Assembly: GCA_037129835.1 (NCBI GenBank)
Contig: JBAXUE010000003.1
Span: 18,793-82,792 of the forward strand
DNA from: a bacterium
GTDB taxonomy: Bacteria; Patescibacteriota; CPR2; UBA1875; CAIMLA01
Direction: 5' to 3'
Length of the DNA stretch: 64,000 bases
In this document: piece by piece, positions 46,015-64,000 of the stretch
Position numbering within the stretch: the stretch's first letter is position 1
Layout: every line of letters begins with the position of its first letter
Made by a program: the position numbers and the translations under genes
Notes under the pieces: generated by a model
Database searches by the model: none
What the model was told of the DNA's origin: nothing
The model's input: only the letters and a program-made list of their open reading frames with translations

Positions 46015-46104
46015 TGGCGGAGAGGGTGGGATTTGAACCCACGGTGACCTTGCGACCACAACGGTGTTCGAGACCGTCCTATTCAACCGCTCTAGCACCT
46101 CTCC
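46015..46104 (-). tRNA. tRNA-Ser (anticodon CGA), type II with long variable arm
   Basis: Reverse complement GGAGAGGTGCTAGAGCGGTTGAATAGG-ACGGT-CTCGAAC-ACCGT-TGTGGTCGCAAGGTCACCG-TGGGTTCAAATCCCA-CCTCTCC-G-CCA folds as a cloverleaf; anticodon loop CUCGAAC; encoded CCA. Confidence 0.8.
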
Positions 46105-51916: not shown

Positions 51917-52006
51917 TGGCGGAAGGGGTGGGATTCGAACCCACGATACCATTGCTGGTATGACGGTTTTCAAGACCGTTCGATTCAACCGCTCTCGCAC
52001 CCTTCC
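51917..52006 (-). tRNA. tRNA-Ser (anticodon TGA), type II
   Basis: Reverse complement GGAAGGGTGCGAGAGCGGTTGAATCGA-ACGGT-CTTGAAA-ACCGT-CATACCAGCAATGGTATC-GTGGGTTCGAATCCCAC-CCCTTCC-G-CCA; anticodon loop CUUGAAA. Confidence 0.8.
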
Positions 52007-52233: not shown

Positions 52234-52326
52234 TGGCGGAGAGGGAGGGATTCGAACCCTCGCGCCAGGTTACCCCGACCTACAGGTTTAGCAAACCCGC
52301 CCCTTCAGCCTCTTGGGTACCTCTCC
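52234..52326 (-). tRNA. tRNA-Ser (anticodon GCT), type II
   Basis: Reverse complement GGAGAGGTACCCAAGAGGCTGAAGGGG-CGGGT-TTGCTAA-ACCTG-TAGGTCGGGGTAACCTGGCGC-GAGGGTTCGAATCCCTC-CCTCTCC-G-CCA; anticodon GCU, A37. Confidence 0.8.
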
Positions 52327-53438: not shown

Positions 53439-55553
53439 TTACTTAGGCCACAAGCTAATTATTAGAGGTTTTTCTTCTTTTAGCTCTTCCCAAATAGTTT
53501 CTGTTAAAAATGGCATAAATGGATGGAGCATTCTTAGCGAATTCCTTAGTACATAGTCGAGCGTGTGTTGCGCTGCAACTTTGCTTTTGTCGTTATCTTG
53601 AATTCTGGTTTTTGCGTTTTCTATATATATGTCACAGAAATCATGCCAAAAAAAGGAATATACCGATTCTGCTGCAATACTTAGTTTGTAGCCCTCAATT
53701 GCTTTCGTTACGACTTTTAAGGTAGATTCGTATTTAATTAAGATATCTTTATCAGCTTGGGTTAATTCTTTTTCAATTGTTTCACGTGAAACAATTTTAT
53801 AATCTTCTAGGTTCATTAAGACAAAACGTGCTGCATTCCAAACTTTATTTGCGAAATGCTTCTGTCCCTTGATGTTTTCCTCAGAAACAGCTACGTCGTT
53901 CTCAATTAAGGCGCCCCAAACCAAGCTCATTCGGAGTGCGTCGGAGCCATATTTATCCACCATCTCTACTGGATCAATCACGTTACCTTTGGATTTACTA
54001 ATCTTTAAGCCTTGTTTATCACGAACAAGTCCATGTAAAACCACATTTTCGAAAGGAGTTTCACCTGTTTCGTAAATTCCGAGCATCATCATGCGGATTA
54101 CCCAGAATGGTAATATGTCGGCAGCGGTTTCCATTACAGTAGTAGGGTAAAAATAGTCGAAATCTTCTTTGCTGTTTACTTCTAGGGCAGCGAAAGGCCA
54201 TTGGCCAGATGAAAACCAAGTATCGAAGGTATCTTTATCCTGGGTGAGCTTGGACGAACCACAATGAGTACAGGTAGGAGGTACTTCCCCTGCAGTGATT
54301 GTCCACTTATTACAACCAGCACAATGCCAAGCAGGAATTCTTATTCCCCATACTATCTGCCGGCTGATGTTCCAGTCACGTAGATTTGTAAGCCAGTGCA
54401 TCGCAGTCTTTTCGAATTTTCTGGCGTTAAAGGTCGTTTGTTTGTTTTCTATCGCAGAGAGTGCAGATTCGGCTAGTTTTTCTACCTTAATAAACCACTG
54501 ATCTTCTAATAAGGGTTCTATAACGGTATTACAACGATAGCACTTACCAACGGAATGGTGCAAATCTTCTGTTTTTGTTAATAATTTGGCTTCCTCGAGC
54601 CTTTTTATTGTTAGCTCTCTAGCTGCTTTCGGCCGCAGTCCCACGTATTCTTCTGGAACATTCTGCATTTTTCCTTCTTTGCTGATGATAGAAATAAGCG
54701 GAAGGTTGTGTTTCTGTCCTATTTCATAATCTGTAGCATCGTGGGCAGGAGTAACCTTGAGCGCGCCCGTACCGAACCCTATTTCTACAAGCTCATCAGC
54801 TATTATTGGCACTTCCCTTCCTATGAGTGGAATAGTAGCGATCTTGCCAACTAGGCTTCCCAGTTTTTTGTCTTTTGGGTTCACCGCTACTGCGACATCG
54901 GCAAATATGGTTTCTGGTCTAGTGGTTGCAATAGTCACGGTACCATAATCTAGGTAGTATAGTTTGTCGTCTTGTTCTTTGTAATCAACCTCAAGTTGAG
55001 AAAAGGCAGTTCCACAGCGGACACAGTAGTTCACTACTCTCTCGCCTCGATATATTAAGTCGTCCTTGAAAAGCTTATTAAACGTTCGATAGACTACTTT
55101 GACAATCGCTGGATCTAGGGTGTATTTACCTCTGGACCAGTCACAAGAGGCACCGAGTGCTCTAAGTTGATTCTCCATATTATTACGGTTATCCACAACA
55201 TAATCCCATATCATTTGGTATAGTGTATCGCGATCATAGTCGAACCTGCTTTTGCCTTCTTTGGCCAATTTTTTCTCAAATACGTATTGCGTTTCTATGC
55301 CTGCATGATCTGCCCCGGGGACCCATAAAGTAGGGCGTCCCTTCATTCTCCAGTAGCGAGTGAGGATATCTTCTACGAATACGAAGCGAGCATGACCGAT
55401 GTGCAGATTGTCATTCGCATTTGGTGGAGGCATTATTATAGTAAAGGGCTTTTCACCTTTTTTGATTATTGGCTTAAAGTAGCCATTATCTTCCCAAAAT
55501 TTGTATATTCTTTTTTCGTTTTCGGCCGGGCTGTATGCTTTTGCCATTTCCAT
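53439..55553 (-). CDS. valS: Valyl-tRNA synthetase (compact form)
   Basis: HIGH as PPPNANDNLHIGHA, KMSKS as KISKSKGNVIDP, ISRQIVWGIRIPAW motif typical of ValRS; 704 aa; preceded by a T-box-like leader. Confidence 0.65.
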   Translation of the reverse strand: MEMAKAYSPAENEKRIYKFWEDNGYFKPIIKKGEKPFTIIMPPPNANDNLHIGHARFVFVEDILTRYWRMKGRPTLWVPGADHAGIETQYVFEKKLAKEGKSRFDYDRDTLYQMIWDYVVDNRNNMENQLRALGASCDWSRGKYTLDPAIVKVVYRTFNKLFKDDLIYRGERVVNYCVRCGTAFSQLEVDYKEQDDKLYYLDYGTVTIATTRPETIFADVAVAVNPKDKKLGSLVGKIATIPLIGREVPIIADELVEIGFGTGALKVTPAHDATDYEIGQKHNLPLISIISKEGKMQNVPEEYVGLRPKAARELTIKRLEEAKLLTKTEDLHHSVGKCYRCNTVIEPLLEDQWFIKVEKLAESALSAIENKQTTFNARKFEKTAMHWLTNLRDWNISRQIVWGIRIPAWHCAGCNKWTITAGEVPPTCTHCGSSKLTQDKDTFDTWFSSGQWPFAALEVNSKEDFDYFYPTTVMETAADILPFWVIRMMMLGIYETGETPFENVVLHGLVRDKQGLKISKSKGNVIDPVEMVDKYGSDALRMSLVWGALIENDVAVSEENIKGQKHFANKVWNAARFVLMNLEDYKIVSRETIEKELTQADKDILIKYESTLKVVTKAIEGYKLSIAAESVYSFFWHDFCDIYIENAKTRIQDNDKSKVAAQHTLDYVLRNSLRMLHPFMPFLTETIWEELKEEKPLIISLWPK

Positions 55554-55730
55554 ATTTGTTTTCCTTATATAAAAACCACACCTAGCTCAGGAGCCCTCTC
55601 GGGCGGTACCATCCTGATTCCTTAGTGTGGGATACTTACTCTTCTGCTATTACGGGCTTACCCGTCGGGTTCTAATTGCTAAATGCTTTCTTCCCGAGAC
55701 TCACTAGTGACTAGCTAGCTCGATGTCTGT
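55554..55730 (-). ncRNA. T-box riboswitch-like leader of valS
   Basis: Minus-strand RNA contains AAUCAGGAUGGUACCGCCCGAGAGGG (15/18 match to T-box consensus AAUUAGGGUGGUACCGCG) about 40-60 nt upstream of the valS ATG, then GGUUUUUAU; a leader of about 177 nt from the predicted promoter; GUCA candidate Val specifier in CUAGUCACUAG. Confidence 0.5.
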
Positions 55731-55736
55731 GACAGA

Positions 55737-55765
55737 ATTTTAGAATATTTTATCGTTTTTGTCAA
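55737..55765 (-). promoter_or_regulatory. Sigma70-like promoter for T-box/valS (TTGACA-N17-TAAAAT on minus strand)
   Basis: Plus-strand tgtcaa (55760-55765) and atttta (55737-55742) are 17 nt apart. Confidence 0.4.
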
Positions 55766-55774
55766 TTAACACTA

Positions 55775-55803
55775 TTGACAATAATGCAATATTATGTTAG
55801 TAT
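55775..55803 (+). promoter_or_regulatory. Divergent sigma70-like promoter for the small GC-rich gene (TTGACA-N17-TAGTAT)
   Basis: ttgaca at 55775-55780, 17-nt spacer, tagtat at 55798-55803; SD GGAGG 6 nt before the ATG at 55889. Confidence 0.4.
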
Positions 55804-55888: not shown

Positions 55889-56164
55889 ATGTACACACAG
55901 GTTTTTGCTACCGTTTGGCCGCTCCTCGTTTTGACTGCTGGAATAGCAGTTGTGGCACCAAAAGTGCCGCGTTGGACATGGATGGTCATAAATGTTGTGT
56001 CGGGGATTCTTCTCGGCGCTTTCGGCGGACTCGTTTCGTTTACAGCAATCGCCACAGGCGGAAACCCAAATGTCGGCCCAGCTGCACTCCTCTCGTTCGC
56101 GGGAGGACTTGCATGGGCAGCGGTATGGCTCCTGTATTACTGGGAGCACCGCTCGAAGGCATAA
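55889..56164 (+). CDS. Small (91 aa) hydrophobic 3-TM membrane protein in a GC-rich islet
   Basis: MYTQVFATVWPLLVLTAGIAVVAPKVPRWTWMVINVVSGILLGAFGGLVSFTAIATGGNPNVGPAALLSFAGGLAWAAVWLLYYWEHRSKA; own promoter, SD and terminator; local G+C clearly above the surrounding DNA. Confidence 0.5.
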   Translation: MYTQVFATVWPLLVLTAGIAVVAPKVPRWTWMVINVVSGILLGAFGGLVSFTAIATGGNPNVGPAALLSFAGGLAWAAVWLLYYWEHRSKA

Positions 56165-63183: not shown

Positions 63184-63906
63184 TTATATTAACTCTGTTT
63201 TGTGATATCTGCCTGCGAAACCTTGAAACTCCGTATAGGTATCTTCTCCTATTAGAAACGGGTAAAAGCCGAGTTCCTCGATCAGTTCTAGGTTCTTTGC
63301 ATTTATTGGTAATATTACATCATTTGATATTGTCTCTGATACTTTCAAGATAGTTCTAGATATGGGTGTTTGTTTTTTTCCCGATAACAAACCTTCAATA
63401 ACAGCCTTAATTTCTTGAAAACTTTCAGGAGTTTTTGAATATTTAATCCCAGTCTCAAAAGAAACTCCTATCTCGTATTGTCCGATTAGTGAGTGTTTTG
63501 CCATCTCTTTGACCATATATATAATGGTGCCAAAGTCCGTAAGGTTCAGAATTTGTTTTGTCTTGATATCTATATTTGTAATGATCGGCGTTGTAAGTGT
63601 GTCAGATGTAGTAGTATGTATGTCTATTAGATATTCTGGATTTCCTATCGCGTTTATCATTCTACTAGCCAAACGTTCTTCATAGTTTCCTGTTGAGTTT
63701 CCAGGAAAACAACGGTTCAGGTCTTCTTCGATATATCTTGTTTTTTGTTTTAGGGCTTTTGTGTTAGCGAGTATTAGCTTTAACTCAGGGTATTTATCGA
63801 TTTTGGAAGTGTAATAATCAAAAAACTTCTTTCCAAAAATTTCATCACCATGCAAACAACAAACAATAGTCACTTTTATTGTTCCGGTACCTTTAGTTAT
63901 TATCAT
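63184..63906 (-). CDS. AstE/AspA (succinylglutamate desuccinylase/aspartoacylase) family Zn-hydrolase-like protein
   Basis: N-terminal VTIVCCLHGDEIFGKK resembles the HGNE metal-binding motif; 240 aa. Confidence 0.35.
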   Translation of the reverse strand: MIITKGTGTIKVTIVCCLHGDEIFGKKFFDYYTSKIDKYPELKLILANTKALKQKTRYIEEDLNRCFPGNSTGNYEERLASRMINAIGNPEYLIDIHTTTSDTLTTPIITNIDIKTKQILNLTDFGTIIYMVKEMAKHSLIGQYEIGVSFETGIKYSKTPESFQEIKAVIEGLLSGKKQTPISRTILKVSETISNDVILPINAKNLELIEELGFYPFLIGEDTYTEFQGFAGRYHKTELI

Positions 63907-64000
63907 CTATTCTCCTTAATTTAAAAAACCTTGTAAACACTCGAAGCAAATAGCTTTAAATATTTACAAGGACCTTCAAGAGGTGGTGCCACCTTGTTTT

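Follow-up and report, generated by a model that had tools for sequence, protein, structure and literature searches.

Does the short leader of valS in a 64,000-nucleotide (nt) stretch of contig JBAXUE010000003.1 sense tRNA-Val as a T-box riboswitch, and how could so compact an RNA control the gene? The whole stretch is called the window here. The gene (53439..55553, minus strand) encodes a valine--tRNA ligase of 704 aa, identified by an NCBIfam equivalog match of 883 bits, and it is the presumed regulated gene. A first-pass annotation, made from the sequence alone, had placed a T-box core about 40–60 nt before the start codon with a U-run behind it and a promoter about 177 nt upstream, and had suggested tRNA-sensing control in a genome like those of the Candidate Phyla Radiation (CPR). 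The local elements are as described. The core AAUCAGGAUGGUACCGCCCGAGAGGG occupies 55619..55594(-), 15 of its first 18 nt are the same as in the canonical AAUUAGGGUGGUACCGCG, it lies 41–66 nt before the ATG (55553..55551, -), and a UUUUU run follows 3' of it at 55575..55571(-). Based on the comparative evidence below, the leader is very probably a T-box-type sensor of tRNA-Val, and the modelled folds suggest that its output is probably transcription attenuation. For the statement as a whole, a reduced valine-specific T-box in which tRNA-Val-dependent attenuation works by competition for Stem III, we lean towards acceptance.

An Rfam search of the whole window at the gathering thresholds has returned four tRNAs and no T-box match. 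Under permissive filters, the T-box family (RF00230) matches 55586..55732(-) from end to end and is the sole family matching the valS leader. The score is 31.1 bits against a gathering threshold of 93 (E = 3.3e-5 locally and E = 0.004 for the whole window), so the match above threshold that the first-pass annotation had anticipated was not obtained. The alignment has 3 nt where the model has 71 positions of Stem I, and the rest of the model is matched. The degenerate core RGGRTGGNACCRYC is expected 0.28 times per window when up to one mismatch is allowed. Since the RF00230 score alone is insufficient for family membership, comparative evidence was sought.

Genome and metagenome contigs were scanned for relatives of the valyl-tRNA synthetase (ValRS), and the contigs of 12 ValRS proteins 65–77% identical to that of the window were added. 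A MAFFT alignment of four leaders mis-registered Stem I between members with 7-nt and 10-nt loops, and for this reason the first covariance model, R1, was seeded from the window and locus L015 only. R1 has recovered 13 further distinct leaders directly 5' of valS (L015, L010, L018, L161–L164, L166, L167 and L169–L172). Together with the window they form the type A set of 14 leaders, which includes several close pairs and is aligned as A6. Ten of the 12 closest ValRS proteins carry the leader, the two without it being L165 and L173. RF00230 gives 22–44 bits or no match on the relatives' leaders, and none reaches 93.

The covariation in A6 carries the assignment. In the common fold, 97.9% of cells are paired, compared with 22–48% when the partners are slid, and none of 500 shuffles is as good. 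Both sides change in 22 of the 28 pairs, and these compensatory changes keep every helix across a ValRS divergence that reaches down to 46% identity. With R3, a model specific to the family, the window scores 141.8 bits; elsewhere than in valS leaders of CPR relatives, no match of R3 exceeds 17.4 bits, and it has found no second copy in the window and does not detect the Firmicute valS T-box L031. R3 also matches a second sub-type (type B) 5' of valS in L084, L085 and L009, as well as a degenerate leader in L022. The suggestion of T-box-type control of valS in a CPR genome is supported by these 14 leaders through their conserved GUC-A and UGGU and their covariation.

The leader begins with an ultrashort Stem I of 30 nt at 55698..55727(-), GAC-[AUC]-GA-G-CUAG-[CUAGUCA]-CUAG-U-GA-GUC, delineated by sequence and covariation. 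Its base fits a kink-turn (K-turn) as judged at the sequence level only, with a C-stem, a 3-nt bulge and tandem G-A pairs; the relatives show RAR / YRAG at this place, with A-A in some. The upper helix has 4–5 base pairs (bp) and is capped by a 7-nt terminal loop that ends in GUC-A, so that the predicted specifier GUC (55711..55709) and the purine A (55708) form the 3' end of the loop (55708..55711, -). All 14 type A leaders have this GUC-A at the specifier place; the remaining positions of the loop differ between them (CUA, CCA, CUU, AAU). The two helices of Stem I, helices 1 and 2 of A6, are 90–98% paired with compensatory changes. The Stem I with a valine specifier that had been foreseen can therefore be drawn, with GUC followed by A, but as an ultrashort hairpin with the specifier in the terminal loop and not as a long stem with a side loop. 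The AG bulge and the distal loop, with its interdigitated double T-loop motif (IDTM), which are features of long-stem T-boxes, are absent.

The promoter sets the same limit. The TTGACA-N17-TAAAAT element at 55765..55737(-) matches 11 of 12 sigma-70-like positions with a 17-nt spacer and is the joint best in the 20 kb scanned; its -35 box TTGACA is at 55760..55765(-) and its -10 box TAAAAT, found by sequence and promoter scan, at 55737..55742(-). Transcription likely starts near 55730, about 177 nt before the ATG, and an equivalent promoter is present at the same distance in L161, L162, L169 and L170. The gap between the -10 box and Stem I is 10 nt, which leaves no space for a long Stem I.

Stem II follows at 55665..55697(-) and consists of a UCGGG/CCCGA closing helix, an S-turn-like AAGAAA / UUAGAA element and a GC/GC upper helix, as supported by covariation. 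Its helices 3 and 4 are 98.6–100% paired in A6, with 7 of 7 pairs changing on both sides, and the S-turn-like motif AAGAAA...(A/U)(G/U)UAGAA is conserved across the family. The Stem IIA hairpin, CGG-GUAAGC-CCG at 55653..55664(-), contains helix 5, which is invariant in A6. Across the family its loop pairs with the linker 3' of it as the IIA/B pseudoknot, and this pairing co-varies, with different members offering different partners (UAUGC/GCAUA, GAGAA/UUCUC, ACUCA/UGAGU and GCUC/GAGC). Cognate loop and linker pairs average -3.44 kcal/mol against -1.43 kcal/mol for non-cognate ones, and none of 20000 permutations is as good. In the window, a GC of the IIA loop can pair with GC at 55647..55646.

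The 3' domain starts with a purine flank, AAGUA, and a predicted mini Stem III, UCC[CACACUAA]GGA, followed by A (55619..55637, -); the constrained fold of the ON state forms UCC/GGA. The discriminator motif has been defined as 5'-RRRxG-Stem III-AA-3', and Stem III has been found indispensable for binding the tRNA 3' end (PMC7583486). By comparison, the window has AAGUA-UCC[..]GGA-A and most relatives have AAG-x-G-CC[..]GG-AA, with a stem of 2–3 bp that is invariant and so without covariation. The antiterminator-like element (55587..55617, -) comprises the A1 helix UCAGGA/UCCUGA, the bulge UGGUACC (55611..55605) and the A2 hairpin GCCC-GAGA-GGGC, assigned from the Rfam alignment and covariation. 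A1 and A2, helices 6 and 7 of A6, are 96–100% paired, with compensatory changes in 8 of their 10 pairs. UGGU occurs in 14 of 14 leaders, and UGGUACC as a whole is invariant. Invariant GUC-A and UGGUACC together with the compensatory changes point to purifying selection on the parts that would contact tRNA. The UGGU bulge predicts A73, which is the usual discriminator base of tRNA-Val. A tRNA-Val gene on which the anticodon and A73 could be checked has not been found in the window or in 23 loci.

In the class definitions taken from PMC7583486, PMC7778990 and PMC11297988, the closest counterpart is the actinobacterial ileS T-box (class II of the TBDB). The ileS T-boxes of M. tuberculosis and N. 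farcinica (PDB 6UFG, 6UFM) have an ultrashort Stem I and act on translation (PMC7583486), and an ultrashort Stem I was previously known only from actinobacterial ileS T-boxes. Both systems have the specifier and purine in the terminal loop of a very short Stem I that has no elbow-binding IDTM, a Stem II with S-turn and IIA/B pseudoknot that presumably compensates, and a discriminator made of Stem III (predicted in the valS leader), A1, bulge and A2, and both control the gene of a class I aminoacyl-tRNA synthetase. The valS leader differs in its CPR/Microgenomates host, in its GUC specifier before valS as opposed to AUC before ileS, and in A2, which here is a minimal 4-bp tetraloop hairpin whereas actinobacterial A2 often has insertions.

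The part of the leader that would act on expression is also conserved in its layout. Behind the core, all 14 leaders have in this order a G-rich strand, a U-run, an A/U spacer, a Shine-Dalgarno sequence (SD) and the start codon. We will use the term "segment Y" for the G-rich strand (CU.AGGUGUGG at 55576..55585, -), the predicted 3' strand of the terminator base helix, as indicated by minimum free energy (MFE), duplex and constrained folds and by covariation. Its partner, "segment X" (CCACACU.AG at 55621..55630, -), comprises the 5' strand and loop of Stem III, and its duplex with Y, supported by MFE folding and covariation, reaches -12.5 kcal/mol, the best of the set. The U-run (55571..55575, -) stands immediately 3' of Y, with at least four U in 14 of 14 leaders and U5-7 in most. 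Its end lies 13–24 nt before the start codon in the 14 leaders, except one with 40 nt. In all 14 leaders, the MFE structure of the 3' domain is a composite hairpin in which X pairs with Y and encloses an intact A1-bulge-A2; an upstream GAAG is able to pair with the U-run in this hairpin.

RNAalifold on 3' domains aligned by MAFFT recovered A1 and A2 only, with X and Y out of register. For this reason, the pairing has been assessed by register-free comparisons of cognate and non-cognate strands and by an alignment that was guided by a model and checked by sliding the partners. The mean X:Y duplex energy is -8.83 kcal/mol for cognate and -6.90 kcal/mol for non-cognate strands (permutation p = 0.00025). 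In the guided alignment (R2/A9), 83.5% of the X:Y helix is paired, as opposed to 33–53% after sliding; the helix has a covariation score of 0.53 against 0.06–0.18 and shows changes on both sides in 6 of 6 pairs. These figures favour the structure under test, to which A9 is fitted, and as there are also several close pairs among the 14 their significance is overstated, which counts against the proposed explanation.

The energies point in the same direction as the comparisons. With Y blocked, the ON fold has -15.7 kcal/mol in the window and typically -12 to -18 kcal/mol, and the X:Y composite fold has -26.1 kcal/mol in the window and typically -19.5 to -26 kcal/mol. The composite is more stable than the ON fold by 6–12 kcal/mol. 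L170, which carries a long insert in Stem III, is the sole outlier in energy (ON -32.5, composite -39.5 kcal/mol). On this modelling, the topology in which Y competes for Stem III has a somewhat better than even chance of being correct.

The proposed mechanism is as follows. By analogy with T-boxes of known structure, tRNA-Val(GAC) would pair through its anticodon with GUC, with Stem II buttressing the interaction, and the ACCA end of the tRNA would contact the bulge. By default, Y would pair with X and extend the intact A1-bulge-A2 into one long hairpin abutting U5, which would serve as an intrinsic terminator. When no uncharged tRNA is bound, Y would invade Stem III and the extended hairpin with its U-run would stop transcription. 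Uncharged tRNA-Val, on the other hand, is proposed to hold Stem III, together with its purine flanks, locked against the duplex of bulge and ACCA; X would thereby be kept from Y, and RNA polymerase would read through into valS. The element competed for would be Stem III, where canonical T-boxes use the A1/A2 3' strands.

Several observations weigh against this proposal. Binding of tRNA, termination and the start of the transcript are all inferred computationally. The basal G-U wobble of A2, which is the aminoacyl sensor in the solved structures, is replaced by G-C in the window, and the window pseudoknot has only 2 bp. Stem III, at just 2–3 bp, is thin for a competing element, and Y is able to pair with the 3' strand of A1 in about half of the members. 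A terminator scan with loops of 3–8 nt does not flag the valS U-run site, because the predicted hairpin is long and interrupted. Simple sites of a hairpin plus U are not enriched in the window, with 18 found against 17 expected, so no argument can be made from genome-wide terminator usage. In addition, transcriptional T-boxes have been described as depending in general on a long, IDTM-bearing Stem I to capture tRNA quickly (PMC7583486), and this rule of the field speaks against a terminator behind so short a stem.

The alternative that survives best, although we consider it improbable, is a translational T-box like that of actinobacterial ileS, in which the tRNA would govern access to the SD and the U-run would be part of an A/U-rich spacer. 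The ultrashort Stem I has so far been linked to translational control, the UCCU in the A1 3' strand is complementary to the SD AGGA (55562..55565, -; 8 nt 5' of the ATG), the start codon is paired in the window MFE structure, and the hairpin of the type B leader L084 abuts the AUG without a U-run. However, the tRNA-free ensembles leave the SD mostly open: its unpaired probability averages about 0.63 across leaders and is 0.79 for that of the window. Whether the start codon is paired differs from leader to leader, with unpaired probabilities from 0.03 to 0.93, and this pairing is thus not conserved. The U-run comes right after the co-varying G-rich strand in 14 of 14 leaders, whereas the spacer between U-run and SD varies in length and sequence. 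The valS leader departs from the ileS T-boxes in two further respects: it has a terminator-like hairpin with U5-7 and a free SD where ileS has an SD sequestrator, and its predicted competing strand lies in Stem III where that of ileS lies in the A1/A2 3' strand.

A second alternative, rather unlikely, is the canonical switch of Bacillus tyrS and glyQS, in which the A1/A2 3' strand would pair with Y to form a terminator that destroys the antiterminator, the X:Y pairing being incidental. The first-pass annotation, too, had expected mutually exclusive terminator and antiterminator helices, with the terminator overlapping the T-box sequence. Pairing of Y with the A1 3' strand reaches -7 to -9.6 kcal/mol in L164, L163, L166, L010 and L161, and a canonical terminator is present in the type B leader L009 and in the second T-box of the window. 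In the window leader, on the other hand, this pairing has -5.7 kcal/mol, the same as with shuffled Y, and across the set there is no cognate preference in the register-free comparison (cognate -5.91 against non-cognate -5.72 kcal/mol, p = 0.30, versus the p value given above for X:Y). The canonical terminator fold, at -11.1 kcal/mol in the window and typically -4.5 to -13.7 kcal/mol, is weaker than the antiterminator (ON) fold in 14 of 14 leaders. The same pipeline has found a classical terminator with the A1 3' strand in the two positive controls, the second T-box (63920..64000) and the Firmicute valS T-box L031. Mutual exclusion through a shared 3' strand is thus not what the folds give; the U-run hairpin encloses the antiterminator and would compete with Stem III.

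Compared with the canonical RF00230 T-boxes of Bacillus subtilis tyrS and glyQS, the leader has the same K-turn, specifier and purine, S-turn, IIA/B element and UGGN bulge, and likewise a hairpin and U-run 5' of an aminoacyl-tRNA synthetase gene with a default state predicted to be OFF. The differences are a Stem I shorter by about 70 nt, with no specifier side loop, no AG bulge and no distal loop/IDTM, a predicted terminator that encloses the antiterminator rather than replacing it, and a G-C at the base of A2 in place of G-U. The valS leader therefore shares most of the defining T-box parts; what sets it apart is the low Rfam score, the absence of a long Stem I with IDTM, of a shared-strand terminator and of the A2 G-U pair, and also the absence of the actinobacterial SD sequestrator.

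It is quite improbable that the composite hairpin acts independently of tRNA, as a constitutive attenuator, pause site or stabiliser, with the T-box-like core as a decaying relic. The loss of the element in close relatives (L081–L083, L086, L165 and L173), the degenerate 3' domain of L022, which has no A2, and the A2 sensor pair, whose G-U is not conserved (UA in seven leaders, GC in three, AU and GU in one each, other in two), would fit such decay. Against it stand the invariance of GUC-A and UGGUACC and the compensatory changes in every helix down to 46% ValRS identity. Chance likeness to a T-box core in A/T-rich intergenic DNA, for which the Rfam score of 31 against 93 bits could be cited, is effectively refuted by the strong covariation of 13 independent homologous leaders at the same place 5' of valS and by the specificity of R3, and its probability is negligible.

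With this leader, T-box regulation, and in particular its architecture with an ultrashort Stem I, reaches the CPR and valS. We tentatively suggest, at slightly less than even chances, that the CPR/Microgenomates carry a distinct T-box class: a terminator-based switch with an ultrashort, IDTM-less Stem I, in which A1-bulge-A2 lies inside the terminator and the base helix competes with Stem III and the purine string, a topology that would be undescribed for any T-box. A literature search on T-boxes in CPR, Patescibacteria, Microgenomates and metagenome surveys has returned nothing relevant. The family would have been missed both by the Rfam threshold and by the design of the TBDB search, in which the short-stem class II model was run solely on Actinobacteria and on sequences already passing RF00230.

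If the U-run hairpin is a working terminator, the leader contradicts the rule that ties transcriptional T-boxes to a long Stem I with IDTM. The predicted OFF state, which spares A1/A2 and hits Stem III, would constitute independent evolutionary evidence for Stem III and its purine flanks as the linchpin of the discriminator. If true, the element would also offer a compact natural scaffold (~155 nt) for engineered tRNA-responsive switches. Reduced CPR genomes appear to have retained, if patchily, an RNA-based way to sense the charging of tRNA for at least one synthetase.

The patchiness is seen among the CPR valS genes themselves. The six loci without a leader have close ValRS proteins (60–74% identical); in L081–L083 and L086, valS comes directly after tsaD, and in L165 and L173 the upstream region has no T-box. 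Leaderless genes among such close relatives indicate repeated loss or gain of the element within the clade. The type B loci (L009:1355-1500, L084:645-800 and L085:561-800) have ValRS proteins about 60% identical. Their Stem I loop is CUAGUCC or CCAGUCC, with GUC followed by C and not by a purine, and their Stem II is a plain hairpin with a conserved 15-nt loop, YRAAMRGAAACUYAA. Their expression platforms are diverse: L009 has a canonical terminator, L084 the hairpin directly next to the AUG, and L085 a spacer of 136 nt. The leader in L022:1332-1508, from a Candidatus Shapirobacteria metagenome-assembled genome (MAG), has the K-turn and an identical Stem I loop, CUAGUCA. Its degenerate 3' domain consists of GCUA/UAGC around a 14-nt loop, AAUUGGUAAAAAUC, without the A2 helix and without a U-run, and this leader may be a decaying or further reduced T-box.

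Some type A members show local elaborations. In L166:500-545, L171:490-535 and L172:510-560, Stem I becomes a three-way junction through a small additional hairpin between its helix and the closing strand, and in L170:455-490 a 6-bp helix is inserted in Stem III. In L164:601-776, the T-box element (601-743) contains the deposited ValRS start (730 aa, start at 701); translation probably begins at the AUG some 75 nt further downstream, as in the relatives. Two further observations have been set aside. A hairpin with a CAGUCA loop in L008 was rejected because it sits inside the upstream coding region. The idea that the L015 leader is more conserved than its protein, a possible sign of transfer, was dropped, as leader identity to the window is 60–75% for all members.

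The placement of the host rests on the gene and its neighbourhood. The nearest named ValRS relatives come from Microgenomates, Woesebacteria, Shapirobacteria and Patescibacteria MAGs, and a tsaD gene 5' of valS together with a tRNA-Arg(gcg)/tRNA-Ser(cga) pair 3' of it is common to the window and such MAGs. A CPR (Microgenomates-like) bacterium is therefore a reasonable assignment. An inverted repeat, TTGTCAAT-N6-AATTGACAA (window 55750-55790), has the valS -35 box as one of its arms and produces back-to-back divergent -35 boxes for valS and for a small open reading frame (ORF) on the opposite strand (55889-56164) that has no Pfam match. The same divergent layout is found in L161 and L162, and a spurious Rfam match to mir-96 falls on this repeat. 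Sub-threshold Rfam matches to 'Plastid-psbl-rps4' on the plus strand (window 46018-46104, 51920-52006 and 52237-52326) lie antisense to three tRNA-Ser genes, and another occurs on the tRNA-Ser of L015; they seem to be artefacts that arise from tRNA-like structure on the other strand.

The second T-box of the window is represented by its 3' domain at 63920-64000(-), which ends at the window edge, its Stem I and specifier lying beyond 64000. It reads CAAGG-UGGCACC-ACCU..AGGU-CCUUG, followed by a hairpin with U6, the SD AAGGAG and an ATG. Its terminator is canonical, with 9 bp formed by CCUUGUAAA/UUUACAAGG, and the 5' strand is the A1 3' strand. The two T-boxes of this genome share A1-UGGNACC-A2, a hairpin with U-run, an SD and an ATG; the second has the classical topology and UGGC, whereas the valS leader has the predicted X:Y topology and UGGU. 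The UGGC bulge implies a tRNA with G73. The ORF downstream of the second T-box (63184-63906, -) encodes a 240-aa protein of the AstE/AspA family (succinylglutamate desuccinylase / aspartoacylase), an unusual T-box target.

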